From a virus (taxonomy: Duplodnaviria; Caudoviricetes): a stretch of DNA of 33,160 bases. Each line of letters begins with the position of its first letter. The first letter of the stretch is position 1. Below the pieces are notes generated by a model. It was not told the DNA's origin and did no database searches. It was given only the letters and a program-made list of their open reading frames with translations. Shown piece after piece: positions 12,313-28,642 of this stretch. The stretch lies in the IMG/VR virus record IMGVR_UViG_3300011102_000489, positions 1 through 33,160 of that record; one strand, written 5' to 3'. Position numbers and translations under genes: made by a program.

Positions 12313-12551
12313 CCCGCCGTGGCAAGAAGCTCGCTGAGGAGCGGGCGTTTGGCCGCCGTGATCACGATGGCCACGTCAGGCGCATGGCCGAGAGCCTACG
12401 CATCGAGCGCGTGCGCAAGTGGATCTTCGTCGGCTGGACTGGTCCGTTCAACCTCATCCCGCGGTGGAAGCACGTCATCGTCGGGTATCGCTACTACGAC
12501 CAAAACGGGCGTCGCGTGTTGATGCCACGGAGGATGAAAGATGAAGACTGA
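12309..12551 (+). CDS. Basic hypothetical protein (80 aa)
   Basis: ATGA coupling to the upstream gene; overlaps the downstream start. Confidence 0.65.
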   Translation: MTRRGKKLAEERAFGRRDHDGHVRRMAESLRIERVRKWIFVGWTGPFNLIPRWKHVIVGYRYYDQNGRRVLMPRRMKDED

Positions 12552-13350
12552 GGTCAAGGTCATCGCTGACAGCGTGTCGCTGGACGGCGCCCGCCTGACG
12601 ACGTTGCAGGTCTGCTTTCCGAGGTTCATCCTCGCGGAGGTCAACACGCATCGCATGCTCAGCCGCAACTTCCGTAGCAGCCGCGCGGTGCCGGTGGCAA
12701 AGCTGATCGAGGAGGTGCGCACCTCGCCCTTCTTACCGTCGCAGTTCACGCGCAACCAGGCTGGCATGCAGGGCGGCGAAGCTCTGAGCGGCGACGAGCT
12801 TGCGCGGGCGGAGCAGGCGTGGCGCGAGGCGGCCGAGCTGGCGGCATACTACGCGGAGCTGTTGGTCGACGCCGGCGTGCACAAGCAGTACGCCAACCGC
12901 GTCCTCGAGCCCTACCTGTACGTGCACGGGGTCATTTCCGCCACGGACTGGGGCAACTTCTTCAACCTGCGCTGCCACAAGGACGCGCAGCCGGAGTTCC
13001 AGGAGTTGGCGTTCCTGATCCGCGAGGCGCTGAGTGCGTCGACCCCGAAGCTGGTGGGCTACGGCGAGTGGCACCTGCCTTACGTCTACGACCACGAGCG
13101 GAACACCTTCGATCTCGAGTACCTGAAGAAGATGAGTGCCGCGCGTTGTGCGTGGGTCAGCTACAGGCCATTCAGCGAGTCCGACGAAGCTGATCACCAC
13201 AAGATCAACCGCACCTTCAACAAGCTGGTCGGGGAGCCGATGCACGCGTCGCCGATGGAGCACGTGGCCACGCCTGGCAACACGCACCCGGCGAACTTCG
13301 TCGGTTGGTGCCAGTGGCGCCACTTTCTCGAGGAGGACCGTCGTGGGTAA
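12541..13350 (+). CDS. thyX: Flavin-dependent thymidylate synthase-like protein (ThyX/Thy1, phage type)
   Basis: NTHRMLSRNFRSSRAVP variant of the RHRx7S motif, HKQYANRVLEP, NFFNLRC..AQPEF, HASPMEH. Confidence 0.8.
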   Translation: MKTEVKVIADSVSLDGARLTTLQVCFPRFILAEVNTHRMLSRNFRSSRAVPVAKLIEEVRTSPFLPSQFTRNQAGMQGGEALSGDELARAEQAWREAAELAAYYAELLVDAGVHKQYANRVLEPYLYVHGVISATDWGNFFNLRCHKDAQPEFQELAFLIREALSASTPKLVGYGEWHLPYVYDHERNTFDLEYLKKMSAARCAWVSYRPFSESDEADHHKINRTFNKLVGEPMHASPMEHVATPGNTHPANFVGWCQWRHFLEEDRRG

Positions 13351-22317: not shown

Positions 22318-22346
22318 TTTACGCGCGGTACGTCGTGCCGTACTAT
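22318..22346 (+). promoter_or_regulatory. Sigma70-like promoter
   Basis: TTTACG-N17-TACTAT, followed by a leader hairpin and TTTGCTGAGGA RBS. Confidence 0.6.
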
Positions 22347-22415
22347 CAACATAGTACGACGCGTCGTGTCGTGCTATCAACCACGCTGCACAAGACCTTT
22401 GCTGAGGAAACCACT

Positions 22416-23063
22416 ATGAAGACCGTGATCAAGGGCGGTGATGCCGTCAAGACCGTTGCTCGCCGTGACTCCGCCACCGCGATCCTGCGCAAGCTCGGGA
22501 TCAAGTCCAGCGACTACAACTTGTTCATCATGCAGACCGCCGACGGCCGCTACGCGGTGGCCGAGGACAAGGCGCAGGAATACTTGCAGGCACAGCTCCG
22601 CAAGGTCGCCAACGAAGAGGTGCCGCAGAAGCAGCTCAAGGGCCGCACCAAGAAGGAGGCGGACAGCAACCAGATCAAGCGGCCGTCCGTCGCGGGCGTG
22701 ATCCGCAAGCTCATCCTCGACGGCCTCGACAACAAGGCGATCCACGAGATCATGAAGCGCGACTTCGGCCACGACGAGGACAAGGCACACTACCCCGCGT
22801 GGTATCGCTCGCAGATGCGCCGCGAGGGCTTGATCGAGCGTCCGACCAAGGCGGCGAAGTCCGAGCTGAAGAAGCACGTCGCCAACCCCGCCGTCAAGGA
22901 GAAGAAGGCCAAGGTCAAGAAGATCAAGGCCTCGAAGAAGCGCGTCGTCAAGCGCAAGACCGCGCTGGCGCAGCACAACATCAAAGCGACGCTCGCCGCG
23001 TCGCTGAAGACCGGCCACACCGAAGAGGCGGTGGCTCCCTACTCCCACATTCAGGTGAAGTGA
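22416..23063 (+). CDS. Basic putative DNA-binding protein (215 aa)
   Basis: Helical domain VIRKLILDG...DFG...YPAWYRSQMRREG plus Lys-rich tail; paralogous to the C-terminus of 23419-24156. Confidence 0.75.
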   Translation: MKTVIKGGDAVKTVARRDSATAILRKLGIKSSDYNLFIMQTADGRYAVAEDKAQEYLQAQLRKVANEEVPQKQLKGRTKKEADSNQIKRPSVAGVIRKLILDGLDNKAIHEIMKRDFGHDEDKAHYPAWYRSQMRREGLIERPTKAAKSELKKHVANPAVKEKKAKVKKIKASKKRVVKRKTALAQHNIKATLAASLKTGHTEEAVAPYSHIQVK

Positions 23064-23236: not shown

Positions 23237-23654
23237 CGTCGAGCAGTACACCTTGCACGTGAACGACTTCCCAGCCGCGCACGTGCAGGTGCTGCCCCAC
23301 GGGGTCGTCCTGAACTGGGCCGTGTACGGTCCGCTAAACTGGCCTGAGGCCAAGCTCATGCTCGAGGGTCTTCTTGAGCTCGGGCTGTTGGCCGACAAAC
23401 TGACGCTGAGGAGTCCACATGAAAAAGTCCGCCGCCAAAAAGCCCGCCAAAAAGTCGTCCGCGAAGACGACGAAGATGACGCGCCACACGCTCCCCTCGA
23501 CATCCGCTACGGCCGCCACAACCGCGGCGCCGACCAAGGCCGCCCCGGCGCCGAGGCAGCCCGTAGCTCAGGTGTGCTGCGACCGCAACCGGCGGACGTG
23601 TATCCTGCTGGAAAGAAGCGAGTCGTGCGTAAAGTACGTCGCGCTCGACGTTGA
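23202..23654 (+). CDS. Hypothetical protein (3' part overlaps the next gene)
   Basis: The first ~70 codons have good codon bias and fill an otherwise empty gap; SD is weak. Confidence 0.5.
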   Translation: MSIRIEETTKGDVEQYTLHVNDFPAAHVQVLPHGVVLNWAVYGPLNWPEAKLMLEGLLELGLLADKLTLRSPHEKVRRQKARQKVVREDDEDDAPHAPLDIRYGRHNRGADQGRPGAEAARSSGVLRPQPADVYPAGKKRVVRKVRRARR

Positions 23655-24156
23655 GAACGGGCTCGACGTCACCAGCGCAGACCCCCGAGATTTCGACCGC
23701 GACTATAGGCCGATGGTCGACTACCCTGTCGAGCGAGCCGCCAAGCTGTACGTCGAGTACAGCCGCGGCCTCGGCGCCACCGAGCAGGTCATGCGCATGC
23801 TGGCCAAGCTCACCACCGTCAGCAACGAGGACATTGAAATGGCAACGAAGAAGAAGGCTGCCCGCGCGGCAGCGCCGGTTAAGACCGCCAAGAAGGCGAC
23901 CGCCGAGAAGCCGGCGAAGACGGCCAAGGGCAAGGCCGGCAAGGCGCCGGCCGAGAAGAAGGAGCGCACGCCGCGCGGCCCGACCGCCGCCTCGCGCTTC
24001 CAGGAGCTGATCATGGAGGGCAAGAAGACCGACGACCAGATCTTCGCCATCGTGCAGAAGGAATTCGGCCTGGACGACTCCAAGCGCTCCTACGTCAAGT
24101 GGTACCGCAACTACCTGACCAAGCAGGGCAAGAACCCGCCGGCGCCGAAGGAGTAA
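23419..24156 (+). CDS. Lys/Ala-rich putative DNA-binding protein (245 aa)
   Basis: RBS GCTGAGGAG; histone-like linkers; C-terminal FQELIMEG...EFG...YVKWYRNYLTKQG domain. Confidence 0.8.
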   Translation: MKKSAAKKPAKKSSAKTTKMTRHTLPSTSATAATTAAPTKAAPAPRQPVAQVCCDRNRRTCILLERSESCVKYVALDVENGLDVTSADPRDFDRDYRPMVDYPVERAAKLYVEYSRGLGATEQVMRMLAKLTTVSNEDIEMATKKKAARAAAPVKTAKKATAEKPAKTAKGKAGKAPAEKKERTPRGPTAASRFQELIMEGKKTDDQIFAIVQKEFGLDDSKRSYVKWYRNYLTKQGKNPPAPKE

Positions 24157-24230: not shown

Positions 24231-25103
24231 ATGCCCATCAGCCGCAAGGTCGAGCGCGACACCCGTGACTACGACACCACCCAGCTGCGCGAAGCCGGCC
24301 ACGGCCGCAGCCTGCACCGCGACTACAGTGGCCACTTCTGGCGCTGGAGCTTCGCGCGCAACTTCATCACCGCCAAGGACAACGTGCTCGAGATCGGCTG
24401 CGGCGAGGACCGCCCGCTGAGCAGGATCCTGACCGGCGGCGCGGCGCCCCACGTCAACAAGTACGTCGGCGTCGACCTGAACAAGCTGAAGCAGTCCAAC
24501 AACAAGCGCCTCACGTTCCTCGGTGAGTTCAACTTCGTCGAACGCCACAAGGAGCTGTTCAAGCTCGACCCGGCGTTCAAGGAAGGCTTCGACGTGGTCG
24601 TGCACTACGAGGTCATCGAGCACATGAAGGTCGAGCACGGCCGTAAGCTGCTCAAGGCCGCCTTCGACGCCCTGAAGCCGGGCGGCGTGATGCTCATGTC
24701 GACGCCGTGTTACGACGGCAGGCGGCACGCGGCGAACCACATCCACGAGTACTTCGTGGACGAGCTCCAGAAGGAGACCGAGAAAGCCGGGTTCGTGGTC
24801 GAGCGCCGCTACGGCGTGTTCATGGACATCAAGCACATCGGCAAGCAGAAGCCCGAGAAGGCCGGCACCGAGGCGGGCGAGACGGACCCGAGGCTGCATG
24901 ACGCCATCAAGCTGGTCCGAGCCGGTCTGGCCGAGTACTTCGACAACGACGCGATCAGCTGCATCTTCGCGCCGCTGTACCCCAACCACGCCCGCAACAA
25001 CCTCTGGGTGTGCCGCAAGCCGCTGGCCGCCAAGGCCGCCAAGACGACCGCCAAGACGACCGCGGCCAAGGCCGCCAAGAAGACCACTACCAAGAAGAGC
25101 TGA
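24231..25103 (+). CDS. Class I SAM-dependent methyltransferase (small-molecule/O-methyltransferase type)
   Basis: VLEIGCG, VGVD, FDVVVHYEVIEHM, LKPGGVMLMSTP; no DPPY or PC DNA-MTase motif; Lys/Ala/Thr-rich C-terminal tail. Confidence 0.9.
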   Translation: MPISRKVERDTRDYDTTQLREAGHGRSLHRDYSGHFWRWSFARNFITAKDNVLEIGCGEDRPLSRILTGGAAPHVNKYVGVDLNKLKQSNNKRLTFLGEFNFVERHKELFKLDPAFKEGFDVVVHYEVIEHMKVEHGRKLLKAAFDALKPGGVMLMSTPCYDGRRHAANHIHEYFVDELQKETEKAGFVVERRYGVFMDIKHIGKQKPEKAGTEAGETDPRLHDAIKLVRAGLAEYFDNDAISCIFAPLYPNHARNNLWVCRKPLAAKAAKTTAKTTAAKAAKKTTTKKS

Positions 25104-25114
25104 GGAGAAGGTCG

Positions 25115-25765
25115 ATGAACGACACCCCGACGGTGCCCTGCAAGTGGTGTAGGGCACCGACGTGGCACACCGGGACCGGGTGCTGCGACAACTGCTGGGA
25201 GCTCCAGCGCCGGATCCAGGGCAACCCCGCTCTGGCGGCGAGGATCCTGAACGAGACCCAGAGCCGGACACCGAGCAAGGAGTTCCAAGATGTCCGTGAC
25301 TTCCACCAGAAGTTCGAGCTGCTGTGCTTCGACAAGCCCGCGCGTCTGACCAAGCGCAAGCTCGTCGAGCGCGTTGAGTTCATGCTCGAGGAGCTGCTCG
25401 AGTTCGCGCAGTCGGCCGGCCTCGACGTGCAGGTCGCCCGCGACGAAGATGGCGTGTGGCTACGCCACGTCGAACCGAGCCTGTCCGTGGAGGAGCAGGA
25501 CATGGCCGGTCAGGCCGACGCGTTGGTCGATCTCGTCTACGTGGCCCTCGGCACCGCGGTCATGCTGGGCTTGCCGTGGGACTGGCTGTGGGACGACGTG
25601 CAGCGCGCCAACATGGCGAAGGTGCGCGGCATGACGAAGCGCGGCCACGCGGTCGACGTCACCAAGCCGCCCGGCTGGCAGGGACCGCAGACCCAGCGGA
25701 TCCTCGACCTGGCCGGCTACCGGCCCGACACGGAGGAGCGAGACGATGCGCAGCCCGACCAGTAA
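25115..25765 (+). CDS. MazG-like all-alpha (d)NTP pyrophosphatase (PRA-PH/DR2231 type) with N-terminal Cys-rich Zn ribbon
   Basis: VRDFHQKF, EELLE, DALVDLVYV, VQRANMAK, KPPGW; N-terminal CKWC...CCDNC. Confidence 0.85.
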   Translation: MNDTPTVPCKWCRAPTWHTGTGCCDNCWELQRRIQGNPALAARILNETQSRTPSKEFQDVRDFHQKFELLCFDKPARLTKRKLVERVEFMLEELLEFAQSAGLDVQVARDEDGVWLRHVEPSLSVEEQDMAGQADALVDLVYVALGTAVMLGLPWDWLWDDVQRANMAKVRGMTKRGHAVDVTKPPGWQGPQTQRILDLAGYRPDTEERDDAQPDQ

Positions 25766-26726
25766 GGCCGTCACTATCTTCGAAGGGCCGGACGGCGGCG
25801 GCAAGAGCACGATCGCGCAGGAGTACGCCCGGCTGACCCAGGCACGCTACGTCCACCACGGACCGTACAAGCAGGTGACGGACGGGCTCGCTCGCATGGT
25901 CTATGAGTCTATGCTGCCGGCACTGCTCGGTTACGAGGACGTTGTGCTCGACCGCTGCTGGATCTCGGAACCGATCTACGCCGACGCTTTCCGCGAAGGT
26001 CGCGATCGTGTGGGGCCGGAGCGGGCGCGCATGATGGACCGCGTGGCGATGCGCTGCGGCGCCGTGGTGGTCAGGTGTCTGCCGCCGTGGGCCTTCGTCA
26101 AGGCGACCTTCAATGGTCGGAAGGATAAGGAGTACCTCGACGACGACCAGCAGCTGCTGCGGGTCTACGGTGACTACCAGCATGACCTCAACACGCATTT
26201 GCACGGGGTCGACTACGACTGGACCCAGCACGTCGACAAGAAGCTCAGCCTCACCGTGATGACGGTCGTGAAACCACTGGTCGAGCTGCAGCGCGCGAAG
26301 AACCCGCCGCACGACATTCGTGCCCTGAGCGCGGGCAACTGGAACGCACCGATCGTAATCGTTGGCGACTCGTTCGCCGAGCACAAAAACAACGACACGA
26401 TGTACCAGCTGCCCTTCGTCTCGATGAGCGGCAGCGGCTGCAGCATGTGGCTGGCTCGACAGTTGGCCGAGGGCGGGATCAGCGAGCAGTCGTTGCTCTG
26501 GATCAACGCCGACGAGCTTGAGCGGGTGCCGGAGTTCTTCGACTGGCACGCCGCCAAGAAGTTCGTCACCCTCGGCGACAAGGCCACGTCGGTCGTCAAG
26601 TCCGTGGGACTCGACCACTCGCCCGTCAGTCATCCTCAGTATTGGAAGCGGTTTCAGAACGGGCAGCCTTACCCGCTGATCAAGGTGTTGAAAGATGCGA
26701 TCGCCGAAGTATACGCGCAATCGTGA
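25746..26726 (+). CDS. dNMP (thymidylate-like) kinase fused to a uracil-DNA-glycosylase-fold domain
   Basis: P-loop EGPDGGGKST and DRCWISE; C-terminal half IVIVGDS...LPFV...WINA...VTLGDKA...HPQY matches the family-4/5 UDG motif order. Confidence 0.8.
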   Translation: MRSPTSKAVTIFEGPDGGGKSTIAQEYARLTQARYVHHGPYKQVTDGLARMVYESMLPALLGYEDVVLDRCWISEPIYADAFREGRDRVGPERARMMDRVAMRCGAVVVRCLPPWAFVKATFNGRKDKEYLDDDQQLLRVYGDYQHDLNTHLHGVDYDWTQHVDKKLSLTVMTVVKPLVELQRAKNPPHDIRALSAGNWNAPIVIVGDSFAEHKNNDTMYQLPFVSMSGSGCSMWLARQLAEGGISEQSLLWINADELERVPEFFDWHAAKKFVTLGDKATSVVKSVGLDHSPVSHPQYWKRFQNGQPYPLIKVLKDAIAEVYAQS

Positions 26727-27027
26727 GTGGGCGAAGGAGAACCCAGAGCGCTTCGAGCGGATCCGTAAGCGTGCGAAGTTGAAGCACACCTACGGCATCT
26801 CGCTCGAGGCGTTTGAGGAGCTACTCGCAAAGCAAGGTGGTTGTTGTGCCATCTGCGGTCGGCAAGATCCGGACGATCGCTACTTTGGCTTGCGTGTCGA
26901 CCACTGCCACGATAGCAACAAGGTCCGTGGACTACTCTGCGGGAAGTGCAACCAAGCGATCGGGCTCTTCGACGAGAACATCGATTCAATGAAGGCCGCG
27001 ATCAAGTATCTCAGGAGACACAAATGA
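26695..27027 (+). CDS. Endonuclease VII-family (His-Me) nuclease, homing-endonuclease-like
   Basis: YGISLE...QGGCCAICG...VDHCH...VRGLLCGKCNQAIG. Confidence 0.9.
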   Translation: MRSPKYTRNREWAKENPERFERIRKRAKLKHTYGISLEAFEELLAKQGGCCAICGRQDPDDRYFGLRVDHCHDSNKVRGLLCGKCNQAIGLFDENIDSMKAAIKYLRRHK

Positions 27028-27845
27028 CGCTTACGCCTACTAACGCCACCCGCGCGTGGCTGGGCGCGATCGAGGAGCTGATCCTGCACGGTGCGAATGT
27101 CGCGCCACGCGGCCAACCTACCCTCGAGCTACCGCAGCACACGATCGCGGTTGACCTGGAGCACCCGGTGGTCGTGGCACCGACGCGCAAGGTCAGCGAG
27201 AAGTTCCTCGGTGCCGAGGCGTTCTGGATGCTGTCGGGCGACGACCGGGTCGAGACCATCGCGCCGTACAACAAGAACATCGCGCAGTTCAGCGACGACG
27301 GCGTGCGCTTCTTCGGCGCCTACGGCCCGAAGATCCTCGACCAGCTCGAGTACGTGGTGGGCAAGCTCATCGAGGACGAAGACACCCGGCAGGCTGGGTT
27401 GACTATCTGGCGCGAGAACCCGCCACCCACCAAGGACGTGCCGTGCACGGTGGCGATGTTCTTCAACATCCGTGACGGCCGGCTGAACTCGCACGTCTTC
27501 ATGCGCTCGAGTGACGTCTGGCTCGGGGTGCCCTATGACGTGTTCAACTTCAGCATGGTCGCGATGCTGGTGCTGTGCCGGCTCAACACCAGTCGTGCCA
27601 GCGCCATCTACGGATTGGAGCGGGCACGGGTCATCGAGCCCGGCACGTTGTACCTGACGGCGGCGTCGCGGCACCTGTACGAGCGCAACCAGGCCGCAGC
27701 TCTCGAGGTTCTGCACTCCGACGCGTGGCAGCCGAAGACGGACCCGGTGCCGAGGAGCCTGTGGACCAGCGAGCGCACGCTGATGGAGACGCTGGCTCGG
27801 ATCCGTGATGGCGACGATTCAGCGAAGTGGTGGCTGCGGCGATGA
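27024..27845 (+). CDS. Thymidylate synthase-superfamily enzyme, predicted dCMP (hydroxy)methylase
   Basis: DTRQA, catalytic DVPCT, MRSSDVWLGVPYDVF (Asp at the ThyA Asn177 position), SRHLYE. Start ATG 27024 after AGGAG. Confidence 0.85.
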   Translation: MTLTPTNATRAWLGAIEELILHGANVAPRGQPTLELPQHTIAVDLEHPVVVAPTRKVSEKFLGAEAFWMLSGDDRVETIAPYNKNIAQFSDDGVRFFGAYGPKILDQLEYVVGKLIEDEDTRQAGLTIWRENPPPTKDVPCTVAMFFNIRDGRLNSHVFMRSSDVWLGVPYDVFNFSMVAMLVLCRLNTSRASAIYGLERARVIEPGTLYLTAASRHLYERNQAAALEVLHSDAWQPKTDPVPRSLWTSERTLMETLARIRDGDDSAKWWLRR

Positions 27846-28036
27846 GGCGGCCACCCAGCGACTACCTCAAGCGCCGGTGGGATCGCCAGGCGCGGATCTT
27901 CGAGGAGTTCAAGCGCAGCCCGGAGCAGGACGACGCCCAGAAACAGGTTCGAAGAACGCCGGGACCCGATGACGGCCCGGCAGAGAAGGGAGGCGGAGCT
28001 CCTTCAACTGGAGGAACGGGCGGTGAAGACCTTTGA
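27842..28036 (+). CDS. Hypothetical protein (possibly frameshifted; see findings)
   Basis: ATGA coupling; codon quality drops after about 27945. Confidence 0.4.
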   Translation: MRRPPSDYLKRRWDRQARIFEEFKRSPEQDDAQKQVRRTPGPDDGPAEKGGGAPSTGGTGGEDL

Positions 28037-28080
28037 CGACCTCGCCGCCGTAGTCGTCGACCCACTGAGGAGGTTGCATC

Positions 28081-28608
28081 ATGAGAATCACAAGGGATGA
28101 GTGGGCGATCCAGCTCGCCCTGATCACGGCGCAGCGAAGCACCTGCTGTCGTCGCATGGTCGGGGCCGTGCTGCTCAACCATGCGGGCCACGTGCTGGCC
28201 ACCGGTTACAACGGCGTGGCGGCTGGGTTGCCGCACTGCAACGAGCTGGGAGTCCGTGACACGGGCCGCCAGTTCTTCGGCAGGGAGCAGAAGCTACTCG
28301 AGCTCGACCCGAAGGACCCGCGGTCCTACCCGAACGCGTGCTCAGGCGCGTTCAGCGCCTCAGGCACGAACCTCGACGGGTGTGAAGCGATCCACGCGGA
28401 GCAGAACGCCTTGCTGCAGTGCAAGGACGTCAGGGAGATTCACACCTGCTACTGCACCGCGTCGCCGTGTGTGACCTGCACGAAGCTGCTCCTGAACACC
28501 GGCTGCGCGCGGATCGTGTTCGTGGACGAGTACCCCCACCCGGCGGCCCGCGACCTGTGGACCAGAGCCGGCCGGGAGTGGGTCCAGCTGGTGTTAGAAA
28601 CCCGTTAG
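28081..28608 (+). CDS. dCMP deaminase
   Basis: RSTC..RMVGAV, TGYNG, HAEQNA, SPCVTC Zn motifs; RBS CTGAGGAGGT. Confidence 0.95.
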   Translation: MRITRDEWAIQLALITAQRSTCCRRMVGAVLLNHAGHVLATGYNGVAAGLPHCNELGVRDTGRQFFGREQKLLELDPKDPRSYPNACSGAFSASGTNLDGCEAIHAEQNALLQCKDVREIHTCYCTASPCVTCTKLLLNTGCARIVFVDEYPHPAARDLWTRAGREWVQLVLETR

Positions 28609-28611
28609 ACG

Positions 28612-28642
28612 AAGGGCCCTAGGAGATCCTAGGGCCTCTTTA
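28612..28642. terminator. Hairpin terminator between convergent early and late units
   Basis: GGCCCTAGG-AGAT-CCTAGGGCC flanked by AA and TCTTT. Confidence 0.75.

Follow-up and report, generated by a model that had tools for sequence, protein, structure and literature searches.

Homologs of thymidylate synthase (ThyA) act on dCMP in several phage pathways that end in a modified cytosine: the 5-hydroxymethylcytosine (hmC) pathway of T4, the 5-methylcytosine (5mC) pathway of Xp12 and the Pamexviruses, the 5-carbamoyloxymethyl-C pathway, and the arabinosyl-5-hydroxycytosine pathway of RB69 and DLP3. A few residues tell these enzymes apart; in E. coli numbering, N177D marks the use of dCMP, L143D/E marks hydroxymethylation as opposed to methylation, and D169N marks the 5-hydroxy-dCMP synthases (PMC13326640). 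Against this background, we analyzed a gene cluster at positions 24231-28608 of a 33-kb virus record (IMGVR_UViG_3300011102_000489, about 70% complete), whose whole stretch of 33,160 nucleotides is called the window hereafter. Among named phages, Pseudoxanthomonas phage PW916 and Stenotrophomonas phage AXL3 are nearest to it; both are cultured and carry the same cluster, and identity to them is 87% and 82%, respectively, for the ThyA homolog and 93% and 91% for a methyltransferase encoded at the start of the cluster. An hmC-derived base of some kind very probably replaces cytosine here, and O-methylation of hmC to 5-methoxymethylcytosine is the best single mechanism that we can propose, with about an even chance of being right.

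The ThyA homolog (27024-27845, + strand, E 1.4e-17) has D138, C141, D164, and D172 at E. coli positions 143, 146, 169, and 177, a set of diagnostic residues that is kept in 99/99 distinct relatives from the fetched loci and is the same in T4 gp42. Its best PDB match is the CMP hydroxymethylase MilA (E 7.9e-18), which selects ribose through Lys133 and Ala176 (PMC5175136). In the alignment to MilA, the homolog has Arg and Ser at these two positions, and its predicted substrate is therefore the deoxyribose form, dCMP. Cys146, Asp177, an acidic residue at 143, and the deoxyribose-type Arg/Ser pair are all present, as expected of a dCMP hydroxymethylase. The first-pass annotation had quoted the motif RSSDVWLGVPYD; this motif is indeed there (residues 161-172) and places Asp at the ThyA-177 position, but it cannot tell hmC from 5mC because the Xp12 counterpart reads RSSDLFVGLPYD. 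The residue that does separate them is at position 143, where the Xp12 homolog has Asn.

Three other enzyme classes were considered and rejected. A 5-hydroxy-dCMP synthase of the RB69 gp48 type needs Asn169, and Asp169 is found in the window and in all 99 relatives. For an Xp12-type dCMP methylase, position 143 should be non-acidic and a DHFR gene should be linked, such as the one adjoining the Xp12 methylase cluster; here, position 143 is Asp, and DHFR was found neither in the window nor in any of 4 complete methyltransferase-bearing genomes, in a search in which Xp12 was positive. A canonical ThyA or a dUMP hydroxymethylase needs Asn177, which is Asp in the window. The homolog is, as far as its residues can tell, a predicted dCMP 5-hydroxymethylase, not a dTMP, 5mC, or 5-hydroxy-C synthase.

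Restriction digests of relatives bear on the same question. Among the enzymes that AXL3 DNA resists are KpnI (13 sites) and Eam1105I (14 sites in AXL3), which recognises the AhdI site. Of 37 enzymes tried on AXL3 DNA, the 2 that cut it recognise A/T-only sites, and the modification was left unnamed (PMC7504290). KpnI fully cuts the 100%-5mC DNA of Xp12 and fails on T4gt hmC DNA, while AhdI also cuts Xp12 DNA (completely according to the text, partially according to the table) and also fails on T4gt hmC DNA (PMC7653180). For AXL1, a relative of Xp12, the laboratory that studied AXL3 obtained partial cutting by both KpnI and Eam1105I (PMC9206674). Taken together, the digests argue against plain 5mC in AXL3.

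The methyltransferase (24231-25103, + strand; Pfam Methyltransf_23, E 1.7e-14) is a class I enzyme dependent on S-adenosylmethionine (SAM), from a phage-restricted family, and is predicted to be a metal-assisted O-methyltransferase that tailors hmC. A gene-neighbourhood search had been suggested as a check of its relevance, and the linkage to Asp-type ThyA homologs turned out to be tight. We collected 111 IMG/VR loci anchored on the methyltransferase (two sets taken whole, with 27 and 4 loci, and the best 80 of 239 from a third), which represent 75 distinct proteins; a ThyA homolog is present in the locus of 71 of these, and the contigs of the other 4 end within 641 bases downstream. Among 10 loci taken from genome bins, 7 have a readable ThyA homolog bearing the same residues, 2 are on short contigs, and 1 is unreadable at this gene; the last is L202, which seemed at first to lack ThyA and was excluded from the counts. 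In three loci (L197-L199), the ThyA partner is only about 25% identical to that of the window, keeps the same four diagnostic residues, and clusters with T4 gp42 with a support of 0.999 (FastTree tree of 75 thinned ThyA sequences, rooted on Xp12).

When the search was anchored on ThyA instead (best 80 of 138 loci, near-duplicates included, so that the loci are not independent events), the methyltransferase was found in 60 loci and 5 loci were cut short. The others consist of 7 loci with a three-gene set, 1 with an alpha-glucosyltransferase and a C5-methylase-like gene, 1 with a C5-methylase-like gene only, and 6 in which nothing was recognised. The three-gene set (L058:3736-6796, L062, L073-L075, L079, and L083) encodes a phrog_13881 protein, a 380-aa HMUDK_hel/ADDT-like protein, and a PLP-fold enzyme, and it takes the slot of the methyltransferase in L058 and L062. 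HMUDK_hel and ADDT are families tied to hydroxymethyl-pyrimidine hypermodification; HMUDK_hel occurs in 11-36% and ADDT in 12% of the members of the Atlas look-alikes of the 380-aa protein, which is a lead rather than an alignment. The methyltransferase did not co-occur with the three-gene set or with the alpha-glucosyltransferase in any locus examined. It is also absent from 10/10 whole records of the methyltransferase-less lineages (8 of them complete or 94% complete) and unmatched in 2 further incomplete records, in a search in which the two positive controls matched. These lineages are scattered within the methyltransferase-bearing clade of the ThyA tree, several nodes of which are weakly supported. 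We read the methyltransferase as an optional tailoring step that sister phages swap for other ones.

A few observations on these sister phages deserve mention in their own right. The presence of the three-gene set next to an Asp177 hydroxymethylase suggests that the amino-acid-type hypermodification of thymidine has a counterpart on cytosine. The set's first gene (334 aa) is similar to the N-terminal part of a 795-aa protein from the T4-like Aeromonas phages 44RR, 31, and 25; the 44RR match and the cultured-phage matches of the PLP enzyme had no informative neighbourhood, and the 380-aa protein had no match among cultured phages. Six loci (L063, L064, L066, L068, L070, and L071) combine a hydroxymethylase, a kinase, a degenerate uracil-DNA glycosylase (UDG) domain, and a deaminase, with neither the methyltransferase nor another tailoring gene nearby; the group, of which four records searched whole measure 53-56 kb, could serve as natural plain-hmC controls. 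The cultured T7-like Pelagibacter phage HTVC200P (L002, MH598801) has a kinase and a ThyA homolog with D143, D169, and D177, without the methyltransferase, and its DNA may contain hmC to judge from these residues; a similar ThyA homolog occurs in HTVC119P. In ten loci (L015:5270-6592, L034, L067, L085, L182, L185, L187, L188, L191, and L194), a C5-DNA-methylase-like gene whose PPC motif is intact lies within the cluster or close to it.

As for the methyltransferase itself, its structure model (pLDDT 90.3) has a class I fold, with a Lys/Ala-rich tail beyond residue 265, and the motifs ExxEH and NHxxE are found in 66/66 homologs. A DNA base methyltransferase of the N4/N6 or C5 type was rejected, as a DPPY-type motif IV occurs in 0/66 homologs and the window protein has no DNA-methylase Pfam match. 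Structural comparison with VIA gave no clear winner, with 4htf, which we take to be CmoM, at Z 18.8 (rmsd 4.3, 202 aligned), UbiG at 17.0 (3.5, 187), and HEN1 at 15.6 (2.8, 177); none of the 50 VIA rows is a DNA methyltransferase, which does not exclude one. Foldseek likewise returned a flat list of class I enzymes that names no substrate, with CmoM (8joz), a tRNA pyrimidine side-chain methyltransferase, among its top rows. In a search of the PDB with the family profile, UbiG came first (E 7.6e-9), followed by bacterial and human Hen1, all of them O-methyltransferases. The metal ligands of HENMT1 include E132, E135, and H136, and the metal of Hen1 binds a vicinal diol (PMC10781085). E127, E130, and H131 of the methyltransferase align with these three ligands and provide the Glu-x-x-Glu-His signature; we do not class the protein as a member of the Hen1 type, but by analogy it may work like one. 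It is the best-conserved product of the cluster (median identity 69.5% vs 56% for the ThyA homolog over 60 loci, which were chosen by ThyA similarity), and its basic median isoelectric point (8.8 vs 5.9 for the ThyA homolog) is a weak hint of DNA binding. The family is almost only viral: a protein search returned 578 homologs, of which the top 120 share at least 69% identity, and Atlas clusters are 95-100% viral in 9/10 rows.

The pathway that we propose runs as follows. The MazG/PRA-PH all-alpha NTP pyrophosphohydrolase (25115-25765, +; PF01503, E 4.9e-12, phrog_671), a predicted dCTPase by its family and by analogy with T4 gp56, would convert dCTP to dCMP, which the ThyA homolog is predicted from its four residues to turn into hm-dCMP. 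The P-loop dNMP kinase in the N-terminal part (about residues 1-165) of the next product (25746-26726, +; phrog_761, E 4e-11), whose PDB matches are YorR and cytidylate kinases, would bring it to hm-dCTP together with host kinases, and the phage PolA would incorporate it. The dCMP deaminase (28081-28608, +; PF00383, E 1.5e-18; HAE..PCxxC in 81/81 homologs) would provide dUMP for dTMP synthesis and, with the flavin-dependent thymidylate synthase ThyX (12541-13350, +; PF02511, E 4.8e-16), a predicted separate source of dTMP that the first-pass annotation had missed, would keep dTTP supplied. ThyX is helpful but not universal in these phages: the window, AXL3, and PW916 have it, but a search of 5 records found it in no more than 2. 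Lastly, and this is the weakest step, the methyltransferase would methylate the oxygen of the CH2OH group with SAM as donor and with the help of a Glu/Glu/His/His metal site, DNA being a likelier substrate than the nucleotide, and the methyl group would be a sugar-free cap shielding phage DNA from host nucleases. The earlier proposal of a cytosine-directed, pre-replicative pathway with a counterpart for each T4 step of that stage is supported, and O-methylated hmC, one of the end products it had listed, is our leading candidate too.

Several points weigh against 5-methoxymethylcytosine. The profile search that favoured UbiG and Hen1 also gave phosphoethanolamine and lysine N-methyltransferases and cyclopropane synthases, and the top VIA rows mix O-, N-, and C-methyltransferases at Z 15-19, so that the fold names no substrate. 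hmC has no vicinal diol, unlike the substrate of Hen1, and the presumed fourth metal ligand, H170, is invariant in the family and lies outside the Hen1 alignments shown. Hydroxymethylase genes with no recognised tailoring gene nearby (6 of the 80 loci, and HTVC200P) indicate that tailoring is optional, and the C5-DNA-methylase-like gene adjoins the methyltransferase in several loci, which is odd if hmC replaces cytosine. The AXL3 digest panel does not separate plain from capped hmC, the comparison of digests spans laboratories and incubations (30 min for AXL3, 1 h for AXL1) and relies on a deduced base for AXL1, and the literature searched yielded no chemical analysis of window or AXL3 DNA, which leaves the product to deduction.

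Of the other explanations, the one that survives best, though it seems rather unlikely to us, is that the DNA contains plain hmC and that the methyltransferase acts elsewhere, on an RNA end in the manner of Hen1, on a protein, on a stray nucleotide, or on a component of host defence. The rank of Hen1 among the profile matches and its diol substrate fit this explanation, plain hmC suffices for the digests of AXL3 (PMC7504290), and there are near-complete sister genomes that have the hydroxymethylase without the methyltransferase. Against it, the methyltransferase always comes with a hydroxymethylase-type ThyA on contigs that are long enough (71/71, including the distant T4-like one), and it is mutually exclusive with the other predicted hmC-tailoring genes. 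A protein target next door, the product of the Lys/Ala-rich hypothetical gene usually found just upstream of the cluster (23419-24156, +), was rejected since this gene is not a fixed partner: 12 loci with both methyltransferase and ThyA lack it, 7 loci that have no methyltransferase carry it, that of Xp12 included, and it tracks phage lineage instead.

It is improbable, and clearly more so, that the methyl group makes a base other than 5-methoxymethylcytosine, be it N4-methyl-hmC, 5-methoxy-C made from 5-hydroxy-C, or a methyl ester formed after further oxidation of the C5 group. The presence of CmoM (8joz) and of several N-methyltransferases among the top structural rows speaks for such a base, and 5-hydroxy-C, which resembles an aminophenol, would suit a UbiG-type enzyme. 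Yet the motif of amino-methyltransferases of the DPPY type is missing from all 66 homologs, and no oxidase gene was found in the cluster by Pfam and PHROG. Methylated 5-hydroxy-C, which the first-pass annotation had also listed, does not agree with the Asp169 kept in 99/99 relatives, as the 5-hydroxy-dCMP synthases tested have Asn169 (PMC13326640).

Very unlikely is the idea that the ThyA homolog is a dCMP methylase of the Xp12 type and the DNA contains plain 5mC, an end product likewise put forward at first: the RSSD...PYD motif and the MazG and deaminase neighbours are common to Xp12, but Asp143 instead of Asn143, the failure to find DHFR, and the resistance of AXL3 DNA to KpnI and Eam1105I, which cut the DNA of Xp12 or AXL1, all contradict it. 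An ordinary route of dTMP supply (dCMP to dUMP to dTMP to dTDP), for which the annotations of AXL3 and PW916 (PMC7504290, PMC9414467) and the deaminase and kinase would speak, is hardly credible given Asp177 and Asp143, a separate ThyX, and AXL3 DNA that is cut only at A/T-only sites.

The kinase is fused to a UDG-fold domain resembling family 4 (about residues 183-326), and here the first-pass annotation was right about the fold: Foldseek matched it to the family-4 UDG 1l9g (E 6.5e-6), and VIA gave Z 8.7 (rmsd 3.7, 132 aligned). Motif A (G-D/E), Phe, Asn, and the His-Pro of motif B are all found; Phe, Asn, and His-Pro are kept in 27, 27, and 26 of 27 homologs and align with family-4/UdgX. Family-4 UDGs typically have a GE(A/G)PG loop and an Fe-S insertion. 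These were not found in the domain, which reads GDSF, and the segment past Asn falls short of that of UdgX by about 29 residues. Among 60 methyltransferase loci, the UDG domain was recognised in 26, a kinase without a recognisable UDG domain in 11, and no kinase in 23. Being recognised in fewer than half of these loci, the domain is no pointer to a different end product, contrary to what had been suggested, and is best read as an accessory for optional repair that would remove uracil or deaminated hmC. UDG domains of phage polymerases are comparable in spirit (PMC13697223).

A 127-aa domain (C-terminus of phrog_18404, weak DUF1599/Nmad1 match; L009:7606-7989 and equivalents) is also the C-terminal part of Xp12 QNN97215 (L200:16208-16981). 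In 99 ThyA loci, 61 have the P-loop kinase only, 26 this domain only, none both, and 12 neither; the domain may stand in, without being homologous, for the kinase that acts on modified dCMP. The MazG enzyme of the window has a Cys-rich N-terminal extension (CxxC...CCxxC, 25115-25250) that is apparently missing in AXL3 and PW916, whose genes are about 30 codons shorter.

The genes of the cluster are all on the + strand, and neighbours abut or overlap. The six co-oriented, tightly packed enzyme genes announced for 24231-28608 are there, with the correction that the stretch holds seven open reading frames (ORFs) and that the sixth enzyme is an inserted endonuclease VII-type gene (26695-27027, +; PF02945, E 2.2e-20), probably a homing endonuclease and outside the pathway. 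It is missing from the kinase-ThyA slot in AXL3 and PW916. Both here and in L202 (9116-9532), an endonuclease VII gene lies directly 5' of the ThyA homolog, which suggests a homing endonuclease targeting this junction. The remaining ORF (27842-28036, +; 64 aa) has no Pfam or PHROG match and tblastn matches in AXL3 and PW916 only. The cluster ends with a terminator-like hairpin (28614-28637, +; a 10-pair stem followed by a T-rich tail), which is a consensus match only. Lys/Ala-rich, histone-like stretches lie upstream of the operon and inside it (22335-23063, 23419-24156, and the tail of 24231-25103). The phrog_17205 domain at the end of the 23419 gene is also fused to some C5-methylase-like proteins. 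By Pfam and PHROG, the window also codes for a terminase, a portal, a primase, a ligase, PolA, an SNF2 helicase, an endolysin, and tail genes. A/T-only sites were not depleted by the observed/expected ratios of 4-mers in the window and AXL3, which gave no useful signal of palindrome avoidance.

If 5-methoxymethylcytosine is confirmed, it would name the modification reported for AXL3, a candidate for phage therapy, and add a new natural DNA base. At even chances again, we would see here a lineage of small phages, both sipho- and podoviruses, that is old and widespread, includes AXL3 and PW916, and has a dedicated Hen1/UbiG-like methyltransferase that converts genomic hmC to this base, which would make a new, oxygen-acting class of DNA methyltransferase and one of several interchangeable modules for tailoring the product of one and the same hydroxymethylase. 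As the smallest possible disguise for hmC, a methyl cap may evade host defences that depend on hmC or glucosyl-hmC, and an hmC-specific O-methyltransferase could label or protect 5hmC as T4 beta-glucosyltransferase does. We found no description of methoxymethylcytosine or of this ThyA-methyltransferase pairing in the literature searched, which covered few subscription journals; a computational paper by Iyer and Aravind (2013) may list the pairing already. With two phages in culture whose methyltransferases are 91-93% identical, the question is open to a direct test.

How, then, does this locus compare with the known systems? Compared with T4, there is a predicted counterpart for each pre-replicative step (gp56, gp42, gp1, and cd) and the same four residues as in gp42, but the dCTPase would be a MazG/PRA-PH enzyme without a gp56 homolog match, the methyltransferase and the kinase-UDG fusion are additional, and the window phage is a small PolA siphophage with ThyX. 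T4 has alpha- and beta-glucosyltransferases, and none was found here; a glycosyltransferase, already noted as not visible in the window, was not found in 4 complete related genomes either, and the GT1 and GT2 Pfam families were empty in 5/5 records, a search without a phage positive control. The Xp12/Pamexvirus 5mC pathway shares the MazG-ThyA-deaminase order, Asp177, and a related Lys/Ala-rich upstream gene, and differs in Asn143, DHFR, and KpnI-cut DNA; such a methyltransferase was not found in Xp12, of whose genome 33.8 kb were examined. Hen1 and UbiG have the class I fold, the GCG SAM loop, the ExxEH motif, and STP past strand 5 in common with the window family, but identity in structural alignments is below about 20%, they act on RNA 3' diols and catechols, and the window family is confined almost entirely to viruses. 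The 5-carbamoyloxymethyl-C pathway of Yang et al. also combines a ThyA homolog, a PRA-PH enzyme, a deaminase, and one non-sugar tailoring enzyme, the latter being a carbamoyltransferase there, with no mention of a methyltransferase in the main text as searched (PMC8670742). Finally, the RB69/DLP3 pathway has in common with ours a hydroxyl handle placed on dCMP by a ThyA homolog with an acidic residue at 143 and Asp177, but it has Asn169 and arabinosyltransferases where the window has Asp169 and a methyltransferase (PMC13326640).

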